NCBI RefSeq assembly: GCF_964213995.1
Contig: NC_135816.1
Coordinates: 67,704,001 to 67,768,000, forward strand
Reading direction: 5' to 3'
Source of the DNA: Mustelus asterias
Taxonomy: Eukaryota
Length of the DNA: 64,000 bases
Shown here: positions 23,132 through 64,000 of the stretch, piece after piece
Layout of the letters: each line of letters opens with the position of its first letter
Position numbering within the stretch: the stretch's first letter is position 1
Position numbers and translations under genes: made by a program
Notes under the pieces: generated by a model
Told to the model about the DNA's origin: nothing
Databases searched by the model: none
The model's input: the letters and a program-made list of their open reading frames with translations, nothing else

Positions 23132-23422
23132 GGGGAAAGATCTTGAGTTCACACTCTCTGTCTGCGAGTTCGCTGACGGGGGCTCAAGATCCAGCAAAAC
23201 ACGAAAATCGTGAATCTCACAAAAGGCGTACCTATCTCAGTGGAGCCAGTTCTCAGCTCTGATTCCCCGCCCTGTCAGTGATGGCGTAAACCACGCCCAC
23301 TCTTATTTTTGGCAGTTAAAATGACAAGATTTGGAGAGAAAACTGGCCAGTGGAGCTGGGGAGTTCTATGCCAGTACTCACCAGAACTGACACTTTGCCA
23401 AATTCTCATAAGCTTTCTCCCT
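23132..23422. mobile_element. Harbinger-type MITE nested in the Gypsy RNase H region
   Basis: Ends resemble those of 16100-16993 and 44927-48832. Confidence 0.55.
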
Positions 23423-23666
23423 TTATGGTGACAGTAGGAGATTTTTGATCTTGTCAAAAGGTTTTTGTTGGTCCACATTCCAGCAGCCATGTTGACCCTG
23501 TTTCATCAGCTATTGTAACATTTTGTTGATTTCTGCCATGTTTGGTAGGAAATTGCCGACTTGATTGACTATCCAAAGGAAACTTTGTAATCCTTTTATG
23601 TTTATAGGCTGTGGAAACTCTCTAATAACTTCAGTTTTCTGTGGATTATCTATAATCTGTTGTACC

Positions 23667-24486
23667 TGTTAGTTCTCAGATACTTTCAACCAGTTTACTT
23701 ACTCCAAGGTTTTACCCCGGTGCCCTTATTTGCAGGATGGACAAAGGACAAACACAAATAAAGGTTCAACAAGTTTATTAATAATAACACTATTAACCCT
23801 TAAATTACCCACATAAAACAAGAGGGTACCCCAGATTCAAGTATACTACCCGTAAAGATGGTTTGGTTGAACTGCAGGCCCATTCTCTGAGTCCCTCTGG
23901 TCCGTCGTCACGAAGGTGAGTCTCGATGGCAGCTTCTTCCTTCCTTCCTTCTTCGGTCAGTCTTCCGAATGGGCAAGGCCGCCTCCTTCGTCGCATCTTC
24001 ACTCCTGTGTGTATTGAAGTATGTCCCTTTATCCCCCAGCCTGCTTGCCTTTCCAGAAATTTCTCTGGCTTCCGGCCAATGAGGTTCCAGGAGGGGGTTC
24101 CAATACCCAGTGGGTTTCTTGATGTCTGCCTGACAGGACACCAGGGTCCGCCCCCAGGTGTCCCATCTCCATGCTGTTGCTTTTGTATAACGTGTTATCA
24201 GATAAGGTATCTACAGGAACTCTTGGTGACAGAAAGTCTGACCCGATCTGGGCTTCTAACAATAGGCTGGTGCATTTCAATGAGGTGCAATGGTCTCCTG
24301 CTGAGTATCAGTAAATTGTAATGACCTTTGATGGGTGGTTGATGGGTCAGGCACAGGCACGTTTGTGTATTTGTAAAATTGGCCTGCCTGTGGTTTGACT
24401 GTGTTTGATTTTAATATGCCCAATTCTTTAATTTAGGATATCCAATTTTATCAGCCTTAAAACTAGGCCCTGTTTATATCACCACA
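23667..24486 (-). mobile_element. 3' LTR (820 bp) of a retrovirus-like element
   Basis: On the minus strand, polypurine tract AGAGGAGGGAA, then TGTGGT...CTAACA; AATAAA near 23775. Confidence 0.8.
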
Positions 24487-27400
24487 TTCCCTCCTCTTGA
24501 TCCAATGAGCATCAGCGAACCGGATCACACAACTCTCACCAAACCATCTCAACAAGCAAGTACCCTGAATCTGGAGTTGACAGTATCATCCCTAACCCAC
24601 AATAGTACCAACAAATTTAAATGAAGTAAAATAATTAAAAAAACAATAAGAAACAGTACATCAATCGGGTATATACAAAACAAAGCAATAAACAGTACAA
24701 AATGACAAGTGATTATACATATTAAATATAGATGGGAGAGTATCTTGATTGTAGAGACTCTCCCGATGTCGGATGGCCCTTGCCGATTCCAGGTTTTTGC
24801 AGAAATTCCTTCTTCCATCGGGCGTGGGGTGAACCACATATATCCGGAGTATCGTAGGCTGATTTTTTGGTCTTTGGTTGATGTGGTGTCTGTGGTTCGG
24901 TCTGAGACGAGGAGTCCCAGATAACAGAAAGGTATGTAGTTCATTCTGGGGAAGATCAAGGTAGCACCTGTTAATTCTTATTAATACCTGATTCTCTTTT
25001 CCTTTTCTTTACTAGAATGTCGTATGACTCCTCTTTTTTTTATAAAAAAACAAAGAAATAAGTAAAGGAAAGGCCAAAAGGCCTGTTTCTGAGCTGTAAT
25101 TTTCTATGGTTCTATGGAATAATAAAAGCCCAATAGTGTCATACGAAGGGTTGGTCGGCAATCAGTGTTGATGGGGTTGAGTGGGGTAAGGAGTTTGCAG
25201 AGCATGAAAATAAAATGTTGGGTATGTGCCATGTGTCCTTGTTGTTGGAGGACTATGGCATGGTATAGCAATACATTATTCATCCCACAACCAAACTGGT
25301 GTGTTGGAAAATTATGACGCAGTATAATGTGGGCAGATAAGAAACCCTTTTCAATTGGGCGATTCGTGGAGTCGATGGATAAAGCTATTTACAATCTGGA
25401 CTGTGATGTCCTGATTCTTTCTTAGTGGAGAGAACCTATGTGGGTGGGCTTTGGCTGCCAGGTACCCACTGCATTACCACCTCTGGCAGTGAGCGCCGGG
25501 TCAAACGGTTCTGGGAGTCCCGGTACCAGGGGCGCCACAGGGGGTAAGGTTTGCGGGTTCCCCATCCTTTCCGTCGGGGTCCCCTGGGCTGGGGTTTTAT
25601 TCCTGAAGCCCTGTAAATTGGGGCGGGGTCCGAGGTTGCGTGTGCTGTTCCTGGGGATACTGGGTGGGGGTTGATAACCTGGGGTACAGATTGTGGACCG
25701 TGGTTTAGGTCCGGTGCTGTGGGGTGAGGGTTGGGGCTTCCTTGTGACTCAAAGACTCCTTCCAGGGTGGCATGGTATTGGTGAAAATTTTGCTGGGAGC
25801 CGAATGCCTTCATTTGGTTCACATGATACCACTCGGCTTTCTTGTGGTCTACCATGATCTTGTATACCGAGGGGCTGGTCTTCTTGGTCTTCCACGTATA
25901 TCCCGCATCCTGTCCTCCTGTTTCCCTCTTCCACCATGGATGACCCATCTACAAAAATGTTTAAACTGTCCTGAGCCTGGGTTTGGCTGATTCCCCTGGC
26001 TCCTCCCCCCTTTTGTTTTGGCAAAAAAGACCCCTTGGGGTCTTTTATTGCCGGAACCTGCATTCATGGGGCTCCCCGCCGTAGGTTAGGTTGTCTGCCA
26101 GGAATTTGGGGGTTATAGCTGCATTTCGGGCCGGTCCTTCAAGGGGCATGGGTTGGGGTCCATCATCGGGGAACCGCTGAGATGGTCATGTGGGGTAGTT
26201 GCCCTAGAGTCCTGGGCGAAATGGTTGGGTTGCCCACAGGTATAACACTGTGCTTGTGGGGGTTGGCCTCTGGGCTCAGCTCTATATCGTTCTTGGTGTC
26301 GGGGGTTGGGCCTATGTCCTGTGCGGCCTTGTGGTTCCCTGTGTCGGCGATCAGCAATAGTGTATGGGTGTGCGGGGTTTGCTGGTCCCCTGAAATTTGG
26401 TGGTGCCCTACAGTCCCGGGCAAAATGGTTGGGTTGCCCACAGTTATAACACCGTGCTTGTGGGGGTGCATATCTGGGGTTAGTTTTATCTTGTTCCCTG
26501 TACCTGGGATTGGGAATATATCGGGGTTCTGCGCGGGGCTACGGTTTTCTGTATCGATGATTGGCAGGGGTATATGGGGGTGAGTTTCCCAGTCCCCTGT
26601 TTCCACCTCCCCCTTCGTTACGCCAAACCAGGGCCAGGTCTGTGTGGATCGGGTTCATCAATCCGTGTTTTGTGGACTTGGGGGTGTCCGTTTGTCTGAC
26701 TTCCCATTCCCACACACGAGTCATTTTGCGGATGGCCCAGGCTTCTGTGTGTGTATTATCATCGGGATCAAAATTCTCACAGGCTTTCCGAATCCCCTCG
26801 GTGGCGTGTGCTATCAGGGTCCGGATCCATGTGGGCCGGTGGTGTGCATTTAATTGGACTCGATATAATTGGCCGAAAACCGCAACAAATTGGTTCCATA
26901 GTCGGCCAGTGTAGGCTGTCGGGTGCTCCCCTCTCTTTTGTTGGCAGTTGTTTAAGCCTTGTACCGGGTCACCCTATTGTAGCCTATGGCGGCCAGAACG
27001 ACCGCCTTCATTTCTGGTAGGGTTCCCCCCCCGGCCATGTTCTGGGGTTCGGGTAGGGCGGAACGGATGGCAGGACTTAAACATAACAGAATAGGTTTAA
27101 CCTCTTCTGCCTCGTCTAGGCCGTTTAAAACACGATATTGGGTGACCTGGTCAATGAGAGCATGTGGATCCCCGGAGGGTTCAAATACTCCAATCACTTT
27201 AGCGATATCAGTGAGCTGTGTCATGGTGTATGGAGTTACATAAGTCACATTGTGGTTCTGCCCGTCCTGTCGTTGGGTGGTGACCGGATTCATCGGTACA
27301 GGAACCGGATTAGTGACTGGGTTTATTAGGATGGTAAAAGGACTAGGAGCCGAGACTGAGTTTCCCCAGGTGGGGGCCGAATTAGGTGGTGCCGTTGGTT

Positions 27401-28150
27401 CCACTACCGGGAAGGGAGGTGGGGGTCCCCAGTCGGCAGTGACGCTAGCTGTTCACAATGGCAGGCATCCTCTTCTAAATCCCCCCACTCTACCCCTGGG
27501 TCACTATCCCGTGTTTTGGTCATGCATGCACACATTACACCCCTTTTTATGGCGAGCTGTGCTTTTAAATATTCAATCTGGCGCAGGCATTTGGAGTGGT
27601 CTGTTGCGCGGGCTATATTTACTTTTCCTGCTCGATGCAAAACTTTTACTGCAGCCTGTAGGTCGCTGCATTTACATTTAACTTCCTCTACCCATCGGGC
27701 GAACTTAAATGTGAGGATGGTTAGGTACACTGCCATAAGTAGGATTCCTATTACGGCCAGTTGTGACAGAATGTGGACCCATGGGTGGATTTGGACATTT
27801 GAACCCCAATCCCAGAGGTCCTCCCATTCAGCATGACTGGCCATAATTATTTCCTTTTAGGATTCGTCACTTGAGTATAGGTAAGGGATCATCGGGGTAG
27901 GAGTCTGGTTTTCACTAAATTCCCTCCTGTAGATTTTACCTAAATTCCCTACACTGTTTTAGTTCTAACTACAAAGTTTGTCCACCTTGTGTTACAGATA
28001 CCGGGTTTATGGCCCAATTTACTGGTTGAATCTGTATGAGTCCTTCGCTCACTTAAGACTGGCCGACACGTGGGGCGGCTGCCCTCTTAATTCAGGCTCA
28101 GACGGAGTGTTGGAGAATACCGGGTTGAAGGTTTGACTTTGGAGCAACGT
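24487..28150 (-). mobile_element. Internally deleted retrovirus-like (lokiretrovirus/NYNRIN-like) region: gag, connection and RNase H remnant, integrase C-terminus
   Basis: Frameshifted gag from 27844 to about 26550 (PTAPP, TPYTMTQL, GRLWNQF); LADNLTYGGEPHEC; RNase H IFVDGSS; integrase tail SPSVYKI..WYHVNQMK. Confidence 0.65.
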
Positions 28151-28151
28151 A

Positions 28152-29100
28152 TCACTTCTTATCAAAGTCCCACCAGAGTCGCCACTGTGGGGGCTGTGAT
28201 GGGGTAGTCTGATTTAGGGCTTGATAATCGATTGTGAGTCTCCAGGAACCTTCCGGTTTCCTTACCGGCCATATGGGGGAGTTGTTAGTGGAAGCAACAG
28301 GGCGCAGGACTCCTTGTTTTAATAAACTGCTAATCACCTTGGCCACTTCCCCTTCAGCTTGCTTAGGGAAGCCGTACTGTCTTTGGGGTTTAGGGTCAGG
28401 ACCTTCTATGATTACCTCCCCTGTTATTCGGCCGCAGTCATGCTTGTGACTGGCAAATGCCTGTGTGTATTTGGCTAATATACCCTGTGCTTCAGGGTCT
28501 TCCGTCATTTCTGTGGGCCTGATCTACAATTCTCCAAAAGTAGATATTCGGTCTACGTATCTGCCGGTGGCCACCTCGACTGGGGATTGACAGGTGGTTG
28601 GCATTTGCCAAATGCAACAGTTAGCGGGGTCAAATGATAGGTTGCATTTCCTCATCAGATCGGACCCTAGAATGTGCTCTGTCTCTGGGTGGAGTTTAAC
28701 CAAGATAGCTGGGTGATGACATATTATATTACCCAGTCGAAATTCTAATGGGTCTGTTTCCTAGCCTTCCTGTAAATGTCCCGTAAAGCCACTTAACATT
28801 ATTGTTTTCCTGATAGGCCAAGTGCAGCTGAGGTCACGGGATGCGTTAAGAGTGGTACGGGAACCCTCTGTGTCCCATAGGAACTCAATGGGGTGGCCTC
28901 CTACTTTGTCTTTTACAAGGGGTCTCCCTCCACTATCCCATTCAGTGTTGCAGACCCAAGTTGGGGAGGTCTGACATAGTCATGCTTCCAATCCGGAGTC
29001 TAATTGAGGGTAGAGGCTGAAAGGGGTGTTGGAGTCATCCACCGGGGTTGTGATGCATTGTCTGGCTGGGCCCTTGGGTACAGCACTGAACTGAGACTAA
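28152..29100 (-). pseudogene. Retrovirus-like gag C-terminus, in-frame TGA-CTA, protease and RT N-terminus
   Basis: SLYPQLDSGLEA-stop-LCQ..GRPLV..FLWDTEGSRTTL..ILGSDLM; RT PQRQYGFP..SLLKQGVLRP..NSPIWPVRKPEGSWRLTIDYQALN. Confidence 0.85.
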
Positions 29101-30321
29101 CTACAAGAACCACCAAGCGGAAGAGGAGAATCAATCCCAGTCAGCACTCGAGCAATCCTTATGGACACAGAACAACATGGTAAAAGCTGTGGAATTCTCC
29201 CAACCAGAGAATGGGATAGAGGCTCCAGGAAGTGTCAATGAGACACTAAGTGTCAATAAGATTCATAAAGATAAAATTAAGAGGAGAACAATCACATTCG
29301 ACCCATTATTTTACCCTTAAACGGAAATGTCTGGGGTTTAAGAAAACTTTTTCTTCAATAATTCTTTCACACAAATTAAATACACAATATTTTGGCTTCA
29401 AGTATGCTCTGAATAAATAATTTTAAGACAGAAGTGTCACAGACCTAGCATGGAAATGTTATGCTGCAATAAGTAAAAGCATAAATCTAAAATGCATTTA
29501 TGGAGTCATGCATGACAAGTCCTGCCAATGCCAAAGCCTTGTACTTCGTATTCAGCCGTAAATGACCTCTACTCTACCATTTAAATTATGGAGATAGGCC
29601 CTTGTCAAAGATCATTTGCACTGCCTACCTACCATACATTGAAAGTGAAAAGTCTGGAGGCGAGGTTAAATTTGCAAGACATGAATTATACTGACTAGGT
29701 GTGTAACGCAAGGCAACCAGAGAGGAATGATTTTCCATTTCAAATTCAAAATCCGAGGCATCATTAAAACATCTGGTTACCACACTCAGCCTTTCCCAAA
29801 TCCAGTCCCAGCTCTCACTGTGACAATCGTTTGTATTTAAAAAGAAGCATAGTGATATAAAACGTAGGTAGAAAAAATACAAAAAGCTACCCACTTATTT
29901 TTGTGCTTTTCTTTTTTTTTTGCAAAATTAAATTAATTTTGAAATATTTAATCAATTTCGCCATAATACATCTTGAATGGAGTGATTAAATTTACAAGCT
30001 CACTGCAAGGCAGAAGGTCAAGTGGAGACAACTGTGTTAATTTACTTAACATGATGACTGGATCAATCCATAGTAACACTTTTTCTGAATCAATCCTACA
30101 AATTATATATATTTTTATATAATTTAAAATGCTGATTTTGTGAAATGACAATTAAATAAAAAGCAAACACAGCAAGGGGAACTGTGCATGTATGCAATAT
30201 TAAAAGGACCCATGATTGCTTACACAATTCAGAAAACCCTGTTGAATGTACTTCATATCACAGTGACCAGAAACATTAAAATTTACAGAAAGAGGTCTGA
30301 CATGATTTCTGTTTTGGTTCC
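29100..30321 (-). other. Probable 3' UTR of the IFRD2-like mRNA fragment
   Basis: AT-rich sequence directly after the IFRD stop codon; ATTAAA (29947-29952) lies 25 nt upstream of an A10 tract (29912-29921). Origin of 29100-29895 is uncertain. Confidence 0.55.
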
Positions 30322-30492
30322 TCAAAGTACATCAGCTCTTTTATCCCGGACTTTGCTTCTTGCCTTGGTCCTTGCTTTGAATGCCGCAGAATTGTACAGA
30401 TGCTTTTCGAATCTTGAAATTTTGTTGGCCCTGATAGCAGCAGCATCGAGCATTAGAGGAGGACCCAGTTCAAAGATATCCCGCAGCAAATC
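30322..30492 (-). pseudogene. IFRD2: 5'-truncated processed copy of the interferon-related developmental regulator 2 C-terminus
   Basis: DLLRDIFELGPPLMLDAAAIRANKISRFEKHLYNSAAFKARTKARSKVRDKRADVL-stop matches the IFRD C-terminal domain; the VRDKRADVL ending is IFRD2-like (IFRD1 ends CRDKRADVGEFF); no intron. Confidence 0.85.
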
Positions 30493-30506
30493 CCTGAAGC
30501 TTTCAA

Positions 30507-32175
30507 TGTACCCCAAGAATTTTATCATTCATATTTGTCATTCAATGTGAAATTGCTTCTTGTAAGACATTGAGGGCTGCCCTCACTGAATGGCCATGTC
30601 CTCTCCTCGATGATCCATGCAGGAGAATGTTGTCCATATGGAATATCCCTCCTTCCGTGCCTTCCAGTGTCTGAAACATTATTCTTTGGAATACTTCAGG
30701 TACAGAAGCAATTACAATCTGTTTAAACAATAACAACCAAAAAGGGTGATAGAAGTAATTAACAATCTGGATTCTTTATCCAGAGGCAACTGCCAAAAGC
30801 CACTGTTCATATATAATTTTGTGAATATGCTATTTAATTTATAATAAATTGTAATAAATTATTTAATTTATAATACATAATTTTGTGAATATGATGCTAT
30901 TTGCTAATTTGGCAATACTTTCATCCATTAATGCCATTGGCATCAAATATTGTGCTCTACTGACCTGCTTAATTGAGTCAAACCCATTTAACTTCATTAG
31001 GAACACCCGAGCTAATACTGAGATTGAAATTCGTGGGGTGACCATCAACTTCCAATTTAACCTTCTGATAATTATTTTCTGTTTCATTAAGGGTGGCACA
31101 GTGATACAGTGGTTAGCATTGCTGCCTAACAGTGCCAGGGACCCGAGTTCAATTCCAGCCTTGGCTGACTGCCTGTGTGGACATTTTCCCCATGTCTGTA
31201 CAGGTTTCCTCCAAAGATGCGCAGATTAAGAGCTTGGCCACACTAAAAGTGCCCCTTAGTGTCAGCAAGACTAACAAGGTAAATATGTAGGTTACAGGGA
31301 TAGGGCTGGGTGGGGTTGTTGTTGGTGCAGGCTTGATGGGTTGAGTGGCCTCCTTCTGCACTGTAGGGACTCTATGATTCTATTCTACTAAGATGATTAT
31401 TTGTTTCTGATGTGGCTGTTCTCCTTCTTGCATTTTATTTGGTTTCACTGTTATTTTTCTTCCGATGTGCTATGTGAACTTTGGATTTGCAAACTACTTT
31501 AAAATATCCCAACATCTTACAGTTGTGCCACCCAGCTCCCCCTGCTGGGCATCCTTCCCACTTGTGTAGGGTTTCCCACCACACCAAGACCAAGATGGCG
31601 GTTGGTGCACTTTTCCTGATTTTGTAGCCTTTTGCTTCACCATGCTTTCTCTTTTTATTCCAAAGGAATAAAACCACGGTCCTTAGCTTCATAATTTCAG
31701 TCAGCTCCTGTTGAGGGTGGGAAATCTCTGACAGCAACTTCTGGGTTTCTGCATTCTGCACCAGAGGTTGCTGCCCAATTAACCCCCATTATAAGGGAAA
31801 GTATCAGTAGTCTCAATGTTATTATTATAACGGATTCCAGACCATTTAATGTCTGTCTCTTTAGGGAAAGAAAATGGGTGGGATTTCCCACATCCCTCGT
31901 CCCACTGACCATGGTGTGTTTTGTGGAGGGGGGTATCATTGGCTAGCGGTGGAACAATGGGTTTTCCATGGATTGTCCCCTCCACCACCAGAGAACTGCA
32001 GCAAGCGGATGATATTGGTGGGATTGGAAGATTCCACCAACGGGGACAGCCAGAAAATTTTGGCCAATAAATGTAGGTCGCTTCTGTTCATGACTGTTAG
32101 GCTGGAAGGCTTGACTCTTAGATAAGGGTGACTGAGTGAGGGTTCCTTCAGTGTGGCTGAGTCTACATTTCACCT
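30507..32175 (-). mobile_element. Decayed Gypsy element, 5' half (gag zinc-knuckle remnant and RT)
   Basis: CPA..HNCKMLGYFKVVCKS; IFTKL..SGFWQLPL; PEVFQRIM..HMDNILLHG (YMDD remnant); TLNDK..IKFLGY. The 5' boundary is approximate. Confidence 0.8.
31091..31387 (+). mobile_element. HE1-type V-SINE nested in the Gypsy element
   Basis: tRNA head, partial core, CR1-type tail. Confidence 0.82.
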
Positions 32176-39250: not shown

Positions 39251-40954
39251 CCGTGCCCAAAACGGGCACAACGGCAATTTAAATGCATTTGCGTGCATTT
39301 AAATTGAATTAATGAACCGCCCGCTTAACTTTATCAGCATTTCCCCCTTTCCCACCGCGTTTGCCGATCCGGAACCGCGCCGTAATGGACCTGCTAAATA
39401 AAAGTCTGAATCGGGCGCTCCAGCTGCTGAAGAGCGTGTTCAGAGCTTCCAACGGCTCTCTGACTCAGATCAGTGGTGGGGGGAGGGAGGAGGGAGGCGG
39501 GTCAGATGTTCCTCTTGGGGGGTGGGGGGGGGGTGAGTGAGGCCAGAGCATTCTCTGGGGGGGGATGGGTGAGTCCAGATCATTGTCTGGGGGAGGGGGC
39601 GGGGGTGAGTGAGGTCAGATCGTTGTCTGTGGGGGGATGGGTGAGGCCGGATCGCTGTCGGAGGGCGGGGATGAGTGAGGCCAGATCGTTGTCTGGGGGA
39701 GGTAGGCGGGGGTGAGTGAGGCCAGACCATTCTCTGGGGGGGGATGAGTCCGCCACTCTGCGGACGATCGGTGGGGGGGGAGGGGGGCAGGGGTGGTGAT
39801 TGGTCTGGGTAGTGGGGGGGGGGGGTGGATAAGGGGACAGTGATGTGTGTGGGTAGTGCGGGTGTGGATAAGGGGGACAGTGATGTGTGTGGGTAGTGGG
39901 GGGGTGGATAAGGGGCACAGTGATGTGTGTGGGTAGTGGGGGGGTGGATAAGGGGCACAGTGATGTGTGTGGGTAGTGCGGGTGTGGATAAGGGGGACAG
40001 TGATGTGTGTGGGTAGCGGGGGGGGGGTGGATAAGGGGGACAGTGATGTGTGTGGGTAGTGGGGGGGGGTGGATAAGGGGGACAGTGATGTGTGTGGGTA
40101 GTGCGGGTGTGGATAAGGGGGAGAGTGATGTGTGTGGGTAGCGGGGGGGGGGGGGGGTGGATAAGGGGGACAGTGATGTGTGTGGGTAGTGGGGGGGGTG
40201 GATAAGGGGGACAGTGATGTGTGTGGGTAGTGGGGGGGTGGATAAGGGGGACAGTGATGTGTGTGGGTAGTGGGGGGGTTGGATAAGGGGGACAGTGATG
40301 TGTGTGGGTAGTGGGGGGGGGTGGATAAGGGGGACAGTGATGTGTGTGGGTAGTGGGGGATGGATAAGGGGGACAGTGATGTGTGTGGGTAGTGGGGGGG
40401 AGGTGGATTAGGGAGACAGTGATGTGTGTGGGAAGTGGGGGGGGTGGATAAGGGGGACAGTGATGTGTGTGGGTAGTGGGGGGTGGATAAGGGGGTCAGT
40501 GATGTGTGTGTGTAATGGGGGGGGTGGATAAGGGGGACAGTGACGTGTGTGGGTAGTGGGGGGGGGTGGATAAGGGGGACAGTGACGTGTGTGGGTAGTG
40601 GGGGGGGGGTGGATAAGGGGGACAGTGATGTGTGTGGGTAGTGGGGGGGGGTGGATAAGGGGGACAGTGATGTGTGTGGGCACCATCGCTCCCGCCTTTC
40701 GCTCCCGGGCCGCTTTCTCCGATTTCTGCGGCCCGGGAGTGATCTGACACGGGCACGCTTTTTCAAATTTTTTTCCAACTGCACATGCGCAGTTCAGAGC
40801 TCCGATCGTTTCGGCCGCGCTAAGCCCCGCCCACAGCGCAAATGGGACTGGAGATGACTGAGTGCGCATGGGGGCGCCTGAAAGCAGATTTCTAAGTAGA
40901 ATCTGCATTACGCCCAGATTCAGCACTTAGAATGAAAATGGTAAAATCGGGCCC
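39251..40954 (+). mobile_element. GC-rich non-autonomous Harbinger-like element carrying a minisatellite
   Basis: Ends GGTAAAATCGGGCCC; 39255-39420 is the reverse-complement homolog of about 43930-44110. Confidence 0.6.
39822..40680 (+). repeat. Minisatellite, about 21 units of roughly 40 bp (GTGGATAAGGGGGACAGTGATGTGTGTGGGTAGT-Gn)
   Basis: Direct inspection; unit length varies through the poly-G run. Confidence 0.95.
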
Positions 40955-44250: not shown

Positions 44251-46052
44251 TGTGTTTTAAGATTCGCAAGAATAGGCCGGTTGGGTATGATCTGTACTTT
44301 GCCCATTTCAAAATGACAGGCTATTTGATATGATTCGTCTGCCAGTCTTTGGATGGTATTGCCTACAGATCTAGCATCACTGGCCCTCAAGTTCATTCAC
44401 CACATCACACATTTGTGCGATAGGCAGAATGTATTTTTGGCTTGATGACAGCACCCTGTTAATGGCAAATACCACTCATATTGCTCCTGCAGTGTGAAAC
44501 AGCTTGCTTCACCTATAGCTCAAATTTGTCATATACAAGGCAAGCTGTGCAGCGTATCAAAAACATCTACATGTGACAAATCTATTTAGATTTCATGTCT
44601 TCATGAAATGAAGTATGACAGAGTTCTGTTTATTCAGTAGCTCTTCTGATGAACAATCATATATTCCCATCATTAGATTTAAGAGGTTCTGTTTCAGGTT
44701 CAATGTCCAAATAGAATTTGGTGAAAACAAGAACTGTTTTTCACTTTACCCATCTTAATTTACTCTTTGAGAAACACAACAGCTGAAATAATTCAAATTA
44801 ACTGCTTCAATAAATGAGTTCATGCATCCATATAGTGGTTAAAGGGCAGTGTGGTATTATTTGGTAACAAGTGATAAAATATCTGTTCTTCTAAGCCTTC
44901 AGTTTCAGATCTCAAGAGTAAAACATGGGACAACCTTACCAGAATTTGGCAGTGTCAGTTCCAGCGAGAGAAATGGAGTGAATCCCACTGATGGCTCCAG
45001 CGTAATTTCTGACCAGACCTTGAGCCTCACTGATGAAAGTTTTTATGGCCACAAGAATAGTGCCAAGCCCAGTGCAGCCTCCCTCTGATTTGCCAGCCAC
45101 GGTTCCACTTAATCACGCTAATTACTGGGGAGTTGCATATCAACGGCTCCCCAGTGACTACAGAGGATGGCAGCCAGGAAGCCTGCTCCGCAATTCTCAA
45201 AGGGACACCTGATCAGAAGCGGAATGCACTCTACCCCCACTCCAGGAGAAGGCCTCCCAGCAAGGTCATCACCTCCGCCTGGGATGCAGTGGCAGCCCTG
45301 ATGAGTGCAAGCTCGCTGAAGAAGAAGGACAGACAGCAGTGCTACAAGAAGATGAACAATCTTAATTGCTCAGCCAGGGTAAGTGAACCTCATGAAGTCT
45401 TTTTCTGGACCCTCTCACAAATCTCTCCCCTGGCCACCTTCATCTCTCACCCAACCACTTCAGGCTTGTCAACACCTGTAAGGAGGTCCTTACCCCCCTC
45501 CCCCAATCACCATGTTCCCCACACCACTCATTGCCACGCTCCTCACACTCCAGCTCCCACTCAAGACTCATGCCTGCCACAACTCATCACCATCTTAAGT
45601 GTTAACACTGCCACTTACACTCTCCCTATCTATGTCATTGCAGGACAAAGTAAACCAGAACAAGCGTCAGCAAGCACGCCTAGCCAGAGTAATGCCGGAG
45701 CTCAGAATATTGACATCTTTTGAGCAGAGAGCCCTCGAGCTGGCCGGGAAGGAGGAAGAATGTGCCTGTGCTGAGAGTGAAGTGGGGGCAGCAGACAAAT
45801 GTGAGAATCCTCAAGACATGCTATCATTCCTCAAGTCTCAAGTGAGTAATCAATGTTCCCTCCTTTACCCCTGTAATGCACTAATGCCATCTCCCTTCTC
45901 TTGCAGGCAAAGCAGAATAGACCCGACCATCCTCGTGTCCCCTGGACCCACTGAACTATGATGTGGAGATGCCGGCGTTGGACTGGGGTAAACACAGTAA
46001 GAAGTTTAACAACACCAGGTTAAAGTCCAACAGGTTTATTTGGTAGCAAAAG

Positions 46053-46098
46053 CCACACAAGCTTTCGGAGCTCCAATCCCCTTCTTCAGGTGAGTGGG
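46053..46098 (-). ncRNA. Minimal type I hammerhead ribozyme motif (mirror copy)
   Basis: Exact reverse complement of 46701-46746. Confidence 0.75.
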
Positions 46099-46700
46099 AA
46101 TTCTGTTCACAAACAGAGCATATAAAGACACAAACTCAATTTACATGAATAATGGTTGGAATGCGAATACTTACAACTAATCAAGTCTTTAAGAAACAAA
46201 ACAAAGTGAGTGGAGAGAGCATCAAGACAGGCTAAAAAGATGTGTATTGTCTCCAGACAAGACAGCCAGTGAAACTCTGTGGGGGTTACAAATAGTGTGA
46301 CATGAACCCAATATCCCGGTTGAGGCCGTCCTCGTGTGTGCGGAACTTGGCTATCAGTTTCTGCTCAGCGACAATATTCGGGTAAGCCTTCTCCAAGGCG
46401 GCCTTCGCGACACACGACGGCGCAGAGTCGCTGAGCAGAAACTGATAGCCAAGTTCCGCACACACGAGGACGGCCTCAACTGGGATATTGGGTTCATGTC
46501 ACACTATTTGTAACCCCCACAGAGTTTCACTGGCTGTCTTGTCTGGAGACAATACACATCTTTTTAGCCTGTCTTGATGCTCTCTCCACTCACTTTGTTT
46601 TGTTTCTTAAAGACTTGATTAGTTGTAAGTATTCGCATTCCAACCATTATTCATGTAAATTGAGTTTGTGTCTTTATATGCTCTGTTTGTGAACAGAATT

Positions 46701-46746
46701 CCCACTCACCTGAAGAAGGGGATTGGAGCTCCGAAAGCTTGTGTGG
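46701..46746 (+). ncRNA. Minimal type I hammerhead ribozyme motif
   Basis: CAC-CUGAAGA-stem II (GGGG..CUCC)-GAAA-GCUU-GUG, with palindromic AGCU at stem III. Confidence 0.75.
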
Positions 46747-47140
46747 CTTTTGCTACCAAATAAACCTGTTGGACTTTAACCTGGTGTTGTTAAACTTCCC
46801 ACTGAACTATAGCAGCTCCAAGGGAGACTTTTCGGACCCCACAATGGAAGAGGCTTCACAGCTGTCACCTGCACCCAGCACCAGTGCAAAGACTTACACC
46901 TCAGTGGATTCACTGGATAGGTCACTCAATGGTGAGCATTGGTGATCTGAAGATCTGCAGCAGGTGGAAACAGGAATTTCCCAGGAAACCAGCAGTTGTA
47001 GGGATGTTGGAGACCAAGACTCTGCTGGACCTCTGCATGATGATGGACCCCTCGGTCCGGTTGTCCCAGAGCTGATGGAGCTGCAAAGGAAGATTTGTGA
47101 GCATCAGGAGGGGATGACAGCATCCCTCCTCGGACTGCAA

Positions 47141-58145: not shown

Positions 58146-59306
58146 GTTAGCCTTGTGCTTCTGGATTCCAGATGTTTTGCATGGTCTTGTAAAGACAGCT
58201 GTTGAGAGTAATATGAATGTGTGCTGGACTGGTGTTCAAATATGGCATTGGGATCTTCAATCTGGTTAGCTGATGGCAGCTGGTCAAATCAGCAGGGTGA
58301 TTTGAAGAGATAATCATGCGTGATTAATGAGGGTACAAATGCAGAATCGGGCACCAGTTCATGCCATTTCAGCCAATGGCCTGCATGGGCGCATGTGCAC
58401 TCACAGCTCAATACACTTCCCCTTCTAACCCAAAAGTAGAATAGTGCCGATGCTGGAGATCTCAAATCAAAACAGAAAGCGCTGGAAAAACTCAGCAGGT
58501 GTGACAGCATTTGTGGAGAGAGGAATAGAGTTAACATTTCAAGACCATCTGACACTTCCTGAGACACCCTCTTGAAGGAAACTAAGTCGAGACTCTGTGT
58601 TTAAACTTCTTCAAAATCCTTCATTTAAGAGTTCCAGGTTTTGACCCCGCAACAATGAGGGAACGGTGAGTTCCAAGTCAGGATGGTATCTTGGAACTTG
58701 CAGGTGGTGATGTTCCCAAGCATCTGCTGCCCTTGTTCTTCTAGAAATAGGTTACTTTGTCCATCACATTTCTTTGTCAAACTCAATTAGACCCAGTACA
58801 CTACTTTTTTCCCTCCCTACTCATTTACTTTTCAAATTAAATATTTACCCATCTCTTTAAAAATTGTTTGAAGTTTTCTAATGGTCACTGGTGGGATATT
58901 TGTGCCCTAACAACCCTCTACACAAATAAATACTGACCATTTTGCCCTTTAGATAATGATGATCTCAAATTTTGCCCTCTAGTAGATCTGCATTAATTTC
59001 TAATGAGCTCCATTAAGTTCTCATTACCTAGCTGAGTGAAGCCAGAGGTTATGGAGGTTCAAGTGAAAACATTCCTATGTTAATCCTGGCTCTTTATGTG
59101 GAACTATTTACTCCAGTCTCATTTGCCCACCCTGTCTCCATCTTTCTTTAAAAACTCTTCCTTTCCAAGTTCATCTCCAGTTCTATTTTAGACAATTTGA
59201 TGATCTTGGCCCCTACATCAAAGCATTCCAAATCCAAAACAGCCCTTTAGGGAAAATAATATTTCTACACGACTTTGGTCTTCCAGTGATAATCCTCAGA
59301 TATATC

Positions 59307-59637
59307 TGATGCGCGATATAACTCACGAGGCTAGAGATGCTCGAGGAAATAAAGGCTTTTATTTACTATTACAATGGAGCTACCATATATAATACACGAT
59401 CCCAGACTGAGGGGTCCCAGACAGAGCAGTGACCTTTATACCTCTCCCAGGAGGCGGAGCCCGACTGGGATGTACCATAATAACTATAATACAGGTAGAA
59501 CAGCCCAACCCTAACCCCAACAGTAACAAGTAGAACAACCCAACCCTAACCCCAACAGCAACATATATACAGACTCATAGTACTGGCCAGACCCTGGCTC
59601 AGTACTACCTGGTGGGAACCAACGATGGTTCACCACA
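59307..59637 (-). repeat. 3' LTR (331 bp)
   Basis: TG...CA termini, adjacent PPT, minus-strand TATAAA and AATAAA. Confidence 0.95.
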
Positions 59638-59705
59638 TTCACCCCTCCTTTGAAGACAAAGGCCGGCGGGGTACAAAAAAAAACACAGAATAATTTGTCA
59701 TCAGT

Positions 59706-62465
59706 CTATAAGTTCAGACGGTCAGGGGGACCGCACCGTCGTTGTGACCTCCTCAACACCGGCGATGACACCGGAGTCGGCACTCGCGGTGGCGTTCTCC
59801 CCAAGGCGGTGTCCAACGGCTCCTCCACTGTCTCACGGGCCGGTTGACCCCGAGGTGATGATAATCCGTTGAGTTCGGACACGCCTTGAAGTGGCGACCA
59901 TCTCCTGGACTCAGGCAAGCTGTACACGGGAGTAAAAGGGTTAAGTAATGGTCCCGATGCTGCCCGCACCGTGTCAGATGGGGAAACAATAGTTGGGGGA
60001 TCTCTAACAGGAGGTATGGGAGCGACAGGGGTTTCCATGTCCCCTGCTGGCGCCAGGTCTCGAATCGAGACCGTGTCCTCATGCCCGTTAGGGTATGCCA
60101 CATAGGCATACTGAGGGTTGGCGTGGAGGAGATGGACCTGTTCAACCAAAGGGTCGGACTTGCGGGCCCTAACATGTCGCCGCAGGAGGACAGATCCTGA
60201 GTACGTCAACCAAGACGGAAATGAGGTCCCAGAGGAAGACTTCCGAGGGAATGAAAACAGCCTCTCATGGGGGGTAGCGTAGGTTGCCGTACACAGGAGT
60301 GAGCGTATGGAATGGAGCGCATCAGGGAGCACCTCTTGCCAACGGGAGACTGGAAGGCTTATTGACTTCAACGCCAGTAAGACAGCCTTCCAGACTGTAG
60401 CATTCTCATGTTCCACCTGTCCGTTACCCCTAGGGTTGTAGCTCATGGTTCTACTAGAGGCAATCCCGTATGAGAGCAGGTATTGCCTCAAGTCATCGCT
60501 CATGAACGACGAGCCCCTATCGCTGTGGATGTAGCAGGGGTACCCGAACAGGGTGAAAAGATCACAAAATGCCTTGATAACCGTGGCAGTGGTTGTATCA
60601 GAACAGAGAATGACAAAAGGGAATCTCGAGTACTCATCAATGATGTTGAGGAAGTACACATTCCGATCTGTCGAGGGAAGGGGACCCTTAAAGTCCACAC
60701 TCAGTCTTTCGAAGGGACGAGTGGCCTTAATGAGTTGTGCCCTGTCAGGTCGGTAAAAATGCGGTTTGCATTCCGCGCATACCCGGCAGCTTCTAGTTAT
60801 GGACCTGACATCCTCCACCGAGTAGGGTAGATTCCGGGCTTTTACGAAGTGGTAGAGCCAAGTGACCCCTGGATGGCAGAGGTCATTGTGGAGAGCCTGC
60901 AAACGGTCCTCCTGCATACTGGCGCATGTTCCACGCGACAGGGCATCCGAGGGCTCGTTGAGTTTCCCTGGACGATACATGATGTCGTAATTATAGGTGG
61001 AGAGTTCGATTCTCCACCTCAAGATCTTATCGTTCTTGATCTTGCCCCGTAACGTGTTATTGAACATGAACGCCACAGACCGCTGGTCCGTGATCAGGGT
61101 GAACCGTTTTCCCGCCAAGTAATGGCGCCAATGCCGGACGGCCTCCACAATGGCCTGGGCCTCCTTTTCCACCGCTGAATGTCGAATTTCGGGGCCTTGG
61201 AGGGTGCGAGAAAAAAAGGCGACGGGCCTGCCCGCCTGGTTAAGTGTGGCGGCCAGGGCGAAATCAGATGCATCGCTCTCCACCTGAAAGGGGATGGAGA
61301 CATCGACAGCGTGCATCGTGGCTTTCGCGATGTCGGCTTTTAGTTTTTCAAAGGCCAAACGAGCCTCTGGTGCTAGGGGAAAAGAGGTAGACTTGATGAG
61401 CGGACGGGCTTTGTCCGTGTAATTGGGGACCCACTGTGCGTAGTAAGAGAAGAAGCCTAAGCATCTTCTCAGTGCTTTTACGCTAGTGGGCAGGGGAAGT
61501 TCAAGGAGGGGACGCATACGGTCTGGATCAGGGCCAATGACCCCGTTTTCCACCACGTATCCGAGGATAGCTAGGCGGCGCGTGCGAAATACACACTTCT
61601 CCCTGTTGTAGGTCAGATTCAGGCGAGATGCAGTGCGTAGGAATTTAAGGAGATTGGTATCGTGGTCCTGCTGGTCATGGCCGCAGATGGTGACGTTATC
61701 CAGGTACGGGAAGGTAGCCCGCAGTCCGTTATGGTCCACCATTCGGCCAATAGCACACTGGAAGACCGAGACCCCATTGGTGACACCAAAAGGAACCCTT
61801 AGAAAATGGTACAAGCGACCATCCGCCTCAAAGGCCGTGTATTGTCGGTCCTCTGGGCGAATGGGGAGCTGGTGGTAGGCAGACTTTAGGTCGATGGTGG
61901 AGAACACCCGGTACTGCGCAATCTGATTGACCATGTCAGATATGCGCGGGAGGGGATACGCATCCAGCTGCGTGTATCTATTAATGGTCTGACTATAGTC
62001 AATGACCATCCGGGGTTTGTTCCCACTCTTGACCACCACGACCTGCGCTCTCCAAGGACTAGCGCTAGATTGTATGATCCCTTCCTTGAGGAGCCGCTGA
62101 ACCTCAGATCGAATGAAGATCCGATCCTCAGCGCTGTAATGCCTACTCTTAGTCGCGATGGGCTTGCAGCCTGGCACAAGATTCTGGAATAGGGAGGGTG
62201 TGGTAATCTTAAGCGTCGAGAGGCTACAGGTGGAGCGCGTTGGGCAATTTAGAGGTTGCGAGTCTCCCACTGAAAGCGGAGGGAGTGGCCCACCGTACTG
62301 TAGGGTTACACTCTTCAAGTGGACCATGAAATTTAGTCCGAGGAGTATTGGCGCACAAAGATGCGGTAACACCAGGAGCTTGAAGCTCTCGTAAACCGTG
62401 CCCTGCACCGTTAAATTTACCACGCAACTCCCTAGCACAGTGACAGACCGGGACCTTGATGCCAT
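59706..62465 (-). CDS. pol: Pol: protease C-terminal half, RT, RNase H, integrase
   Basis: ILLGLNF, YLDN (YxDD variant), ESDASD..EKEA..TDQ, HHCC zinc finger, VDF..HSDRG..NGQVE. Confidence 0.93.
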   Translation of the reverse strand: MASRSRSVTVLGSCVVNLTVQGTVYESFKLLVLPHLCAPILLGLNFMVHLKSVTLQYGGPLPPLSVGDSQPLNCPTRSTCSLSTLKITTPSLFQNLVPGCKPIATKSRHYSAEDRIFIRSEVQRLLKEGIIQSSASPWRAQVVVVKSGNKPRMVIDYSQTINRYTQLDAYPLPRISDMVNQIAQYRVFSTIDLKSAYHQLPIRPEDRQYTAFEADGRLYHFLRVPFGVTNGVSVFQCAIGRMVDHNGLRATFPYLDNVTICGHDQQDHDTNLLKFLRTASRLNLTYNREKCVFRTRRLAILGYVVENGVIGPDPDRMRPLLELPLPTSVKALRRCLGFFSYYAQWVPNYTDKARPLIKSTSFPLAPEARLAFEKLKADIAKATMHAVDVSIPFQVESDASDFALAATLNQAGRPVAFFSRTLQGPEIRHSAVEKEAQAIVEAVRHWRHYLAGKRFTLITDQRSVAFMFNNTLRGKIKNDKILRWRIELSTYNYDIMYRPGKLNEPSDALSRGTCASMQEDRLQALHNDLCHPGVTWLYHFVKARNLPYSVEDVRSITRSCRVCAECKPHFYRPDRAQLIKATRPFERLSVDFKGPLPSTDRNVYFLNIIDEYSRFPFVILCSDTTTATVIKAFCDLFTLFGYPCYIHSDRGSSFMSDDLRQYLLSYGIASSRTMSYNPRGNGQVEHENATVWKAVLLALKSISLPVSRWQEVLPDALHSIRSLLCTATYATPHERLFSFPRKSSSGTSFPSWLTYSGSVLLRRHVRARKSDPLVEQVHLLHANPQYAYVAYPNGHEDTVSIRDLAPAGDMETPVAPIPPVRDPPTIVSPSDTVRAASGPLLNPFTPVYSLPESRRWSPLQGVSELNGLSSPRGQPARETVEEPLDTALGRTPPRVPTPVSSPVLRRSQRRCGPPDRLNL

Positions 62466-62486
62466 CGAAATCGTCTGCTTGACAGG

Positions 62487-63683
62487 TTAGATCTGGAGGC
62501 CACACCGCTTCACAGCGTCTGGGTGAATAAAACTCTCCGTGCTCCCGCTGTCAAACAGACAATAAATCAAACGTTTGTTTACCTGTATGTCCATCATAGT
62601 CTTGTCGAGTCTGTGAGGCTTGGCCTGGTCCAGGATGATCGACGCCACCGTTGGTTCGTGAGCGCCACTGCAGGCAGCTGAGATGGATGATGATGACCCC
62701 TGCTGGTCATTCGCGGTTGGTGCCGACCAAAATGGCTGCTCCCATAGGTCGCACGTGGGCGATGGCGCCAAAATCAGCGACCCCTGGTGGTCGCACATCT
62801 CTTGCGACTCCGTCGTCTGTAATGGCGACGTCCTGGCCTGGCACGTGGAAGAAACCCTTGGCAATGCCGACGACGAGTCGCAGGCCGCACTGCTGTTCCT
62901 GGAAGTAAGTTTGGATCGACATACCTTCGAATAATGCCCCTTCTTGCCGCAGGCGGAGCACAACACCGCTTTAGCGGGACATCGCTGTCGAGTGTGCTTC
63001 ACTCCCCCACAGAAGCAACACCGCGGGCCGCCTGGAGCTGCTGCCATCGTCAGGCCCGAGTGTGGGCACGCCATCACGCAGCTTTTCGGACCCGAGGGAC
63101 GAGGTGGGATCTGCGACTGCTCCTGCCACGCTGTCTCCACGTGGTCTTCGGGATACATCGCTAGGCTTTTGGAGGCCGTTTCTAGCGTATCCGCTAGTTC
63201 TATAGACTTCGTGAGATCAAGATTACCTTGCTCCAACAGTCGGAGTCGGATATAAGACGATCCAATTCCTGCCACAAACGCATCTCGAGCGAGGTCATTC
63301 ATGTTCTGGTCTGCCGACACTGCTTTGCAGTTACAGCCCCTGGCTAGCTGTAGGAGCTCGCACGCGTACTGTTCCATCGTTTCGCCGGGCTGCCGTCGTC
63401 GAGTGGCTAAAAGATATCGAGCATGCATCTCGTTTGGCGGTTTAATGTAGCGCTTCTTAAGAAGCTCGAGGGCCCCTTTGTAGTCGGTGGCCGCACGGAT
63501 CGCTAAATATACAGCGTCACTTACCCTCGCGTGGAGGACCCGGAGTCTGTCGTCGTCCATGTTGACCACTGCGGAGGCTGCGAGGTAGTCCTGAAAACAT
63601 TTCGACCAGTGGTCGAAGGTGTTAGAGGCACCCGCCGCACGTGGGTCCAGCATAAGACGTTCGGGTTTTAACATTTGCTCCAT
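62487..63683 (-). CDS. gag: Gag (two zinc knuckles) plus N-terminal half of the protease, ended by an in-frame stop
   Basis: CFCGGVKHTRQRC and CSACGKKGHYSKVC; protease LFDSGS. Confidence 0.9.
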   Translation of the reverse strand: MEQMLKPERLMLDPRAAGASNTFDHWSKCFQDYLAASAVVNMDDDRLRVLHARVSDAVYLAIRAATDYKGALELLKKRYIKPPNEMHARYLLATRRRQPGETMEQYACELLQLARGCNCKAVSADQNMNDLARDAFVAGIGSSYIRLRLLEQGNLDLTKSIELADTLETASKSLAMYPEDHVETAWQEQSQIPPRPSGPKSCVMACPHSGLTMAAAPGGPRCCFCGGVKHTRQRCPAKAVLCSACGKKGHYSKVCRSKLTSRNSSAACDSSSALPRVSSTCQARTSPLQTTESQEMCDHQGSLILAPSPTCDLWEQPFWSAPTANDQQGSSSSISAACSGAHEPTVASIILDQAKPHRLDKTMMDIQVNKRLIYCLFDSGSTESFIHPDAVKRCGLQI

Positions 63684-63745
63684 ACTCTCTGTATCGTTTT
63701 CCTTTCTTTTTCAACGACGAGAGTTCAATTAATAGTAAATAAAAT

Positions 63746-64000
63746 TGATGCGCGATATAACTCACGAGGCTAGAGATGCTCGAGGAAATAAAGGCTTTTA
63801 TTTACTATTACAATGGAGCTACCATATATAATACACGATCCCAGACTGAGGGGTCCCAGACAGAGCAGTGACCTTTATACCTCTCCCAGGAGGCGGAGCC
63901 CGACCGTGATGTACCATAATAACTATAATACAGGTAGAACAGCCCAACCCTAACCCCAACAGTTACAAGTAGAACAACCCAACCCTAACCCCAACAGCAA
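63746..64000 (-). repeat. 5' LTR (partial)
   Basis: Matches 59307-59561 with 3 substitutions seen. Confidence 0.95.

Follow-up and report, generated by a model that had tools for sequence, protein, structure and literature searches.

Introduction

Long terminal repeat (LTR) elements are known across animals to retropose cellular mRNA by template switching at microsimilarities, and the products are expected to carry both LTRs, as integrase needs both ends; three one-sided rows, with the element 5′ and no target-site duplication (TSD) listed, are interpreted as decay in the available text of that study (Tan 2016, PMC5131818). In proviruses of human T-lymphotropic virus 1 (HTLV-1) that lack the 5′ LTR, integrase has been inferred to use an internal sequence, with a normal TSD, according to a review (PMC6950816). 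Host-repaired ends of human immunodeficiency virus (HIV) and avian sarcoma/leukosis virus (ASLV) are described, in the portion of the source at hand, as usually showing much larger duplications or deletions and usually short homology (PMC5041404). Here, we describe an insert in a 64,000-nucleotide stretch of the Mustelus asterias genome (contig NC_135816.1, hereafter the window) that joins the end of a spliced IFRD2 mRNA to a retrovirus-type element with a single, 3′ LTR. The insert is probably a chimeric cDNA, made by reverse transcriptase (RT) from three RNAs and integrated by integrase at both ends.

Results

Borders, target-site duplication and empty site

The insert occupies positions 23658-30488 of the minus strand (6831 bp), has the termini TG...CA and is flanked by the TSD GATT (AATC on the plus strand) at 30489-30492 and 23654-23657, the left copy standing directly before the IFRD2-derived TG. 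Both flanks belong to the same decayed Gypsy RT, the right one having Ty3 RT as its best, albeit weak, matches in the PDB. The reading of the initial annotation that one insertion split this RT is borne out by paralogue alignment and by the empty site. Paralogous Gypsy copies (e.g. loci L078, L083 and L095) align through 30506-30489 into the right flank and hold the 4-mer once, and the empty site, which was to be sought in related sharks, is present in record 18 of run X3, a related species' contig that fuses 30489 to 23653, again with a single 4-mer. A TSD of 4 bp was found in 18 of the 22 solo or two-LTR family copies tested. The four misses comprise a mis-paired truncated copy, a copy with its 5′ LTR past the filter and two copies with a one-base mismatch, the latter two looking like one duplicated locus. 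The TG...CA termini, the TSD of family length and the empty site are those of an integrase-type insertion in one piece.

These borders replace the span 23661..30512, which had been drawn on a direct repeat of TGTACC. The repeat exists at 23661-23666 and 30507-30512, but it is not a TSD. Family LTRs terminate in ...CAGGTAC(A/T)ACA (GGTACA is carried by 39 of 52 LTR ends, counted from fetched loci whose overlaps may count one copy twice) and the window LTR ends at 23658, so the first TGTACC is internal to the LTR; the second is a G-Y codon pair of the Gypsy target. Similarly, positions 30489-30506, an 18-nt candidate “filler” whose exact string is genome-unique, were assigned to the Gypsy target from the paralogues and the empty site. 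Aligning the flanks to Gypsy copies, as had been proposed, worked across both sides, with GATT rather than TGTACC as the sequence that occurs once.

Contigs from short-read run X1, possibly the assembly's own sample, cross the outer junctions with 0 differences over 38 letters on the LTR side and over 30 letters, one below the bridging threshold, on the IFRD2 side. Both outer junctions are contained in short-read contigs, which argues against the misassembly considered at the outset; contigs of run X14, the one small-share run included, added nothing on the junctions.

The order of the parts, listed below as read on the minus strand, is that given initially (IFRD2 C-terminus and 3′ untranslated region (UTR), gag end/protease/RT, gag/RNase H/integrase remnant, polypurine tract (PPT), one complete LTR), and the absence of a 5′ LTR is likewise upheld.

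30493..30790, minus strand: left flank, decayed Gypsy RT, the insertion target, including TGTACC at 30507-30512 (paralogues up to the TSD; X3 empty site)
30489..30492, minus strand: left TSD copy, GATT (AATC on the plus strand) (paralogues, empty site)
30403..30488, minus strand: IFRD2 penultimate exon, 5′-truncated; it starts with TG, which forms the left terminus and the putative surrogate attachment end (85/86 identity; IFRD_C)
30322..30402, minus strand: IFRD2 last exon, coding to the stop, without the 1303-bp intron of the parent (parent comparison)
29067..30321, minus strand: IFRD2 3′ UTR, ending before the mRNA end (colinear with the parent; X7 contig runs 695 nt further)
29056..29066, minus strand: junction 1, microsimilarity GCCAGACAATG/GCTAGCAATG (random-pair test)
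28185..29064, minus strand: gag end, protease and 5′ part of RT from a pol-bearing family member, out of order (family copies)
28167..28188, minus strand: junction 2, ACAGTGGCGACT at 28188-28177 and primer-binding site (PBS) at 28184-28167 (tRNA and copy comparison)
24499..28166, minus strand: leader, gag, RNase H and integrase remnants and 3′ region of a deleted subfamily (zf-CCHC; shared deletion)
near 25068-25117: short stub resembling a short interspersed element, inside the preceding stretch
24487..24498, minus strand: PPT (sequence; same in other copies)
23658..24486, minus strand: complete 3′ LTR, 829 bp, TG...CA, including TGTACC at 23661-23666 (family LTR comparison)
23654..23657, minus strand: right TSD copy (paralogues, empty site)
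23420..23653, minus strand: right flank, continuation of the Gypsy RT (paralogues; weak Ty3 RT matches in the PDB)

The IFRD2-derived part

A gene located at G000:C3:145.21 Mb supplies the host part: its penultimate exon is matched by positions 30488-30403 (85 of 86 bases identical to G000:C3:145214824-145214909) and its last exon by 30402-29065. The best named homologues are IFRD2, and Pfam recognizes the domain IFRD_C in the insert. The GT..AG intron of the parent, 1303 bp long, is missing from the insert and the exons are joined directly, which dispels the early concern that the parent might have no intron here. The alignment to the IFRD2 locus, proposed as a check, is colinear across the last exon junction and into the 3′ UTR; with the intron missing, the initial assignment as a spliced IFRD2 mRNA end stands. 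Insert and parent differ by 27 substitutions in 1395 aligned bases (1.9%); relative to the parent, the insert also has four deletions (6-22 nt) and four insertions (1-15 nt), and the coding remainder amounts to the last 54 codons.

A poly(A) end near 29895-29920, which would have marked an independent retrocopy, was rejected. The A-run near 29920 is genomic in the parent and colinearity extends about 850 nt past it. Moreover, an intron-less contig of 3239 nt from the same species (run X7, record 29; taken as RNA solely since this contig lacks the intron) covers the whole IFRD2 piece and continues for 1093 nt upstream and 695 nt downstream. The piece is therefore truncated at both ends and tail-less, with the switch point inside the 3′ UTR, and it has no TSD of its own. 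A processed pseudogene made by a long interspersed element (LINE) is contradicted by the missing poly(A) tail and TSD. The suggested search for further IFRD2-element junctions returned no second copy among the 40 scored of 82 candidates, and the ribosome binding of IFRD2 plays no role in any evidence found. The left end is a TG, a dinucleotide occurring at 8.4% of the IFRD2-derived positions; no microhomology of the target with the mRNA upstream of this TG was found.

The retroviral part and its family

The LTR of the window is one of a large family, for which 2133 first-look candidates were obtained; the 40 that were scored are 92-95% identical. When compared with the PDB, the RT of another copy reached 180 bits with foamy virus, 154 with murine leukaemia virus and 117 with Ty3. 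Both RT_RNaseH (tether) and RNase_H were recognized by Pfam in the pol of another family copy, and Pol groups with dual-RNase-H Pols of frog, coelacanth and turtle (100/100), apart from the single-RNase-H rows, in a tree rooted by midpoint only and free of named loki, foamy or other clade references. Gag has two CCHC knuckles (Pfam zf-CCHC, window). No env-sized frame was found in three of three longer copies, in which 1.4-1.7 kb separate the integrase end from the PPT and the longest open stretch is 108-199 aa. Judged from these sequence features, the family is an env-less retrovirus-type element (Retroviridae or a sister lineage) with an RT outside Ty3/Gypsy.

Foamy-like endogenous retroviruses (ERVs) have a Gag without Cys-His boxes, GGGTG at the PPT/LTR border and mostly a tRNA-Lys PBS (PMC5210030), and lokiretroviruses are marked by an RT in the loki clade and a paramyxovirus-F-like Env (PMC7947760), as far as the available parts of both sources go. 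Assignment as a foamy-like ERV was rejected: CCHC is present, the border reads GGGAA followed by TG instead of GGGTG, and the PBS of the window is of the tRNA-Arg(TCT) type.

From PBS to LTR, the insert belongs to an internally deleted subfamily, and its gag-to-RNase H deletion join recurs in 26 other places among 40 scored. All four longer copies compared have the sequence of the piece at 29064-28185, comprising the gag end, protease and RT start, 3′ of gag; in the insert, it stands 5′ of the PBS. It is 2.4-4.5% divergent from other copies, and its join to the PBS was seen in no other copy (40 of 487 candidates scored). The initial annotation lists this piece, but not that it is out of order and meets the rest of the element exactly at the PBS. 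In ten other copies, the two LTRs are 2.1-5.3% apart, which places activity of the family in the period to which the 1.9% distance of the IFRD2 part points.

A different host sequence was noted in this family. At least 40 copies (40 scored of 160) carry an endophilin-B1 BAR-domain piece of about 411 bp before the PPT, e.g. L058:5755-6165 and L019:5177-5593; it is absent from the window, where the corresponding position is 24812/24811. The piece has 94% amino-acid identity to a shark short isoform and is likely spliced, because it is without the extra segment of three longer isoforms. In L019, it shares the frame of a small viral 3′ reading frame. Comparison of 15 copies gave 70 non-synonymous and 21 synonymous variants, a pattern that looks neutral.

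Internal junctions and primer-binding site

At junction 1 (29066-29056), element GCCAGACAATG resembles UTR GCTAGCAATG over 11 nt and the insert retains the element letters. This similarity scores 6.5, a value that 6 out of 3000 randomly chosen element-UTR pairs attained, against 2.5 across the junction on its other side. The similar side would be the one that the minus strand had already copied before the jump.

Junction 2 fuses a cryptic site in pol, ACAGTGGCGACT (28188-28177), to an 18-nt PBS (28184-28167) that is the complement of host tRNA-Arg(TCT) gene 3′ ends plus CCA, the triplet added to tRNA 3′ ends. In each of the three longer copies, the ACAGTGGCGACT site is the sole 8-nt match to the 5′ end of the window PBS. 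A census of 100 listed of 186 family PBS matches returned the TCT type once, in the window, along with 27 of the TGGCGACCCAGA type and 72 of the TGGCAC type or variants, two common types which we take to match tRNA-Arg isoacceptors. Furthermore, 30 of 65 exact matches to the TCT-type core (the window and 29 others) were examined: 14 represent a sister LTR family and the rest tRNA-like or other sequence, and the window alone has the window-family leader behind the core. ARAGORN placed tRNA genes in 7 of the 29 loci, two of them Arg(TCT) and five with other or unclear anticodons. Since the primer tRNA is the template for the PBS of the plus strand (PMC4549124, available text), tRNA-Arg(TCT) acting as primer at the pol site is the simplest reading of this junction.

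The sister LTR family (L103, L105-L107, L111-L115, L117, L118, L123-L125; leader about 72% identical where aligned) regularly uses a tRNA-Arg(TCT) PBS, and a co-packaged RNA of this family is a further possible, less simple source of the window PBS. Many tRNA-Arg(TCT)-like gene copies, apparently clustered and inconsistently named by ARAGORN, were seen in G000:C85 and in small contigs (L127-L131).

Discussion

Origin of the insert

The borders of the insert, its TSD, empty site, splicing, both internal junctions and the identity of its PBS are shown by the sequence comparisons. For the RT-made cDNA integrated at both ends, the templates were likely a deleted element, a pol-bearing element and the spliced IFRD2 mRNA, and the host TG/CA likely served integrase in place of the missing 5′ LTR. 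The three RNAs would have been together in one particle of the env-less family, where tRNA-Arg(TCT) would mis-prime at the 8-nt PBS-like site in pol. Minus-strand DNA would extend for about 880 nt and, at the 11-nt microsimilarity, jump to the IFRD2 3′ UTR. The plus strand made on this cDNA would then copy 18 nt of the tRNA, allowing second strand transfer onto the minus strand of the deleted element, and the joined IFRD2 and pol sequences would thereby take the place of U3-R-U5. Finally, integrase would join the real U5 end and the host TG/CA end in one concerted step, giving the 4-bp TSD. That the same family holds another host-derived piece, endophilin-B1, was counted in favour of this origin.

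Within the RT-plus-integrase origin, tRNA mis-priming is moderately favoured and a mis-aimed jump from the PBS is distinctly less probable. The complete scenario, i.e. a germline fossil in which mRNA-derived cDNA, mis-primed by tRNA in pol, replaced the 5′ LTR at second strand transfer and furnished an end that integrase accepted, is put forward tentatively, at slightly less than even odds. The initial annotation had envisaged minus-strand synthesis jumping from element RNA to host mRNA and integration by one authentic LTR end. The spliced IFRD2 end joined to retroviral sequence, now placed at a microsimilarity, and the one real LTR end are retained from it, but it was incomplete in that the insert has a second internal join and a host end that is itself of the integrase type (TG and the exact 4-bp TSD of the family).

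Several observations weigh against the preferred origin or its individual steps. The 8-nt match for mis-priming is short, and the cryptic site is preceded by ACAG, the same four bases as at the U5 end, an identity that a jump would exploit and for which mis-priming has no need. Past its TG, the host end does not stand out as attachment-like: of 120 TG sites, 9 match U3 equally well over 12 nt and 38 match U5 equally well over 6 nt. No PPT-like tract was found before the TG in the mRNA, which leaves formation of the left DNA end unexplained. The timing is loose, as the 1.9% distance between insert and parent is as large as that of the flank to the empty-site species (15/784). Among the contigs listed, the internal junctions at 29065 and 28184 are not bridged, and one X1 contig has the insert-type letters exactly over 29065-29449 and is then unlike the window, which we suppose is probably an assembler collapse with the parent gene. 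Last, this is a single event, and the mechanism is inferred from one fossil.

The alternative that survives best is a sub-variant of the RT-plus-integrase origin that skips second strand transfer. One continuous minus strand, started on a parent with a TCT-type PBS, would have jumped to pol RNA at a 12-nt match and then to IFRD2 mRNA. Such a course makes use of the full 12-nt identity of pol with the U5/PBS border, ACAG included, lets both jumps run in the same direction and draws on a family that has more than one PBS type, so that switches do occur. However, the TCT-type parent PBS it calls for is in none of the 99 other listed copies, nor in the 29 other exact-core loci examined, and to derive it from the common TGGCGACCCAGA type, three particular changes would have to produce a perfect complement of the tRNA by coincidence. 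An 18-nt overhang at the U5 end would also be expected. Overall, the continuous strand is considered unlikely.

A two-step history, in which a two-LTR provirus made the TSD and DNA repair later exchanged the whole stretch between LTR base 3 and the PBS for a chimeric cDNA, needs no surrogate end for the TG and the 4-bp TSD, and it agrees with the interpretation of one-sided cases as later loss in the available text of Tan et al. (PMC5131818). Both breakpoints must, however, fall on exact functional borders (LTR start and PBS), the IFRD2 sequence reaches the TSD with no LTR residue past TG, and no intermediate allele was seen in contigs from the four sequencing runs checked; the history is judged improbable. 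Even less credit is given to one-ended integration, with integrase inserting the U5 end and host repair joining the IFRD2 end. This is a known result when one end is a poor substrate (PMC5041404, accessible portion) and the host end is weakly attachment-like, but the exact family TSD of 4 bp and the TG start would then have arisen only by chance, and junction homology is lacking. The least probable option, a LINE retrocopy or genomic duplication beside an ERV fragment, or a misassembly, can point to LINE-like RT sequence in the window and fetched loci and to the internal junctions that lack independent bridging, but is hard to reconcile with the missing intron, poly(A) and separate TSD of the IFRD2 piece, with an insert that ends at the U5 CA and not at a poly(A) site, with exact outer junctions in contigs and with an empty site without the whole 6.8 kb as one block.

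The copy is predicted to be inert, having no promoter, no 5′ LTR and the last 54 IFRD2 codons only, and the value of this single copy is mechanistic. With the TSD corrected and an empty site known, the involvement of integrase can be tested. The primer of the aberrant cDNA appears to be recorded in the PBS, a rare glimpse of an RT accident in a vertebrate germline. Should the complete scenario, mis-priming included, be true, LTR elements could yield 5′-truncated, spliced and tail-less retrocopies with one LTR or a seemingly decayed flank, which present screens would classify as “LTR lost later” or “uncertain”. A search rule follows from the locus: spliced mRNA with a TG start, element on the 3′ side only and a TSD of family length.

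Other features of the window

A young Gypsy-type element lies on the minus strand at 59300-64000, with a pol stretch of 926 aa, a gag stretch of 407 aa and LTR-like repeats that are 98% alike (59300-59561 and 63739-64000); it is cut by the window end. Two arms of 378 nt, 99% complementary and 54 nt apart, form an inverted repeat at 45995-46804, and a unit of about 40 nt recurs in a G-rich tandem array at 39480-40680.

Comparison with known systems

With foamy-like fish ERVs and lokiretroviruses, the family shares dual RNase H, and with the foamy-like ERVs also a 4-bp TSD; its RT scores best against foamy Pol among solved structures. Unlike foamy-like ERVs and lokiretroviruses, as characterized in the available parts of PMC5210030 and PMC7947760, it has a CCHC Gag, a tRNA-Arg PBS, a border other than GGGTG and no env. 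The PBS can record the priming tRNA, as in the accessible account of primer-tRNA copying (PMC4549124); the difference is that the tRNA recorded here fits an internal pol site better than the family PBS types.

No report of a host-mRNA end used by integrase, nor of a tRNA mis-priming fossil, was found in the literature consulted, in which older J Virol papers are thinly covered, and the available parts of PMC12789967 and bioRxiv 2024.03.25.586437 hold nothing decisive. The capture of mRNA by LTR elements and integrase-made proviruses without a 5′ LTR are thus known separately, and their combination was not found in print, older virology being thinly covered.

One-ended HIV and ASLV integrations also have one normal LTR end and one abnormal end, but the present insert has an exact family TSD (cf. 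the accessible portion of PMC5041404). Closer in form are the HTLV-1 proviruses of PMC6950816, which, in the sections available, have one LTR and a normal short repeat abutting the non-LTR end, and were formed before integration. Their surrogate end is viral pol/env and somatic, whereas the end described here is derived from host mRNA, lies in the germline and is joined to a rearranged element. The retrocopies in the available text of Tan 2016 are alike in being partial spliced mRNAs without poly(A), with microsimilarity at the mRNA-element junction and an ERV/LTR carrier. There, the mRNA sits inside the element; here, it forms a terminus that abuts the TSD, and the element is on the 3′ side only. 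In summary, the insert works like an LTR-mediated retrocopy but is not a standard member, having one LTR and element sequence on one side of the mRNA. It represents a natural and well-bounded exception to the expectation that LTR-mediated retrocopies start with both LTRs.

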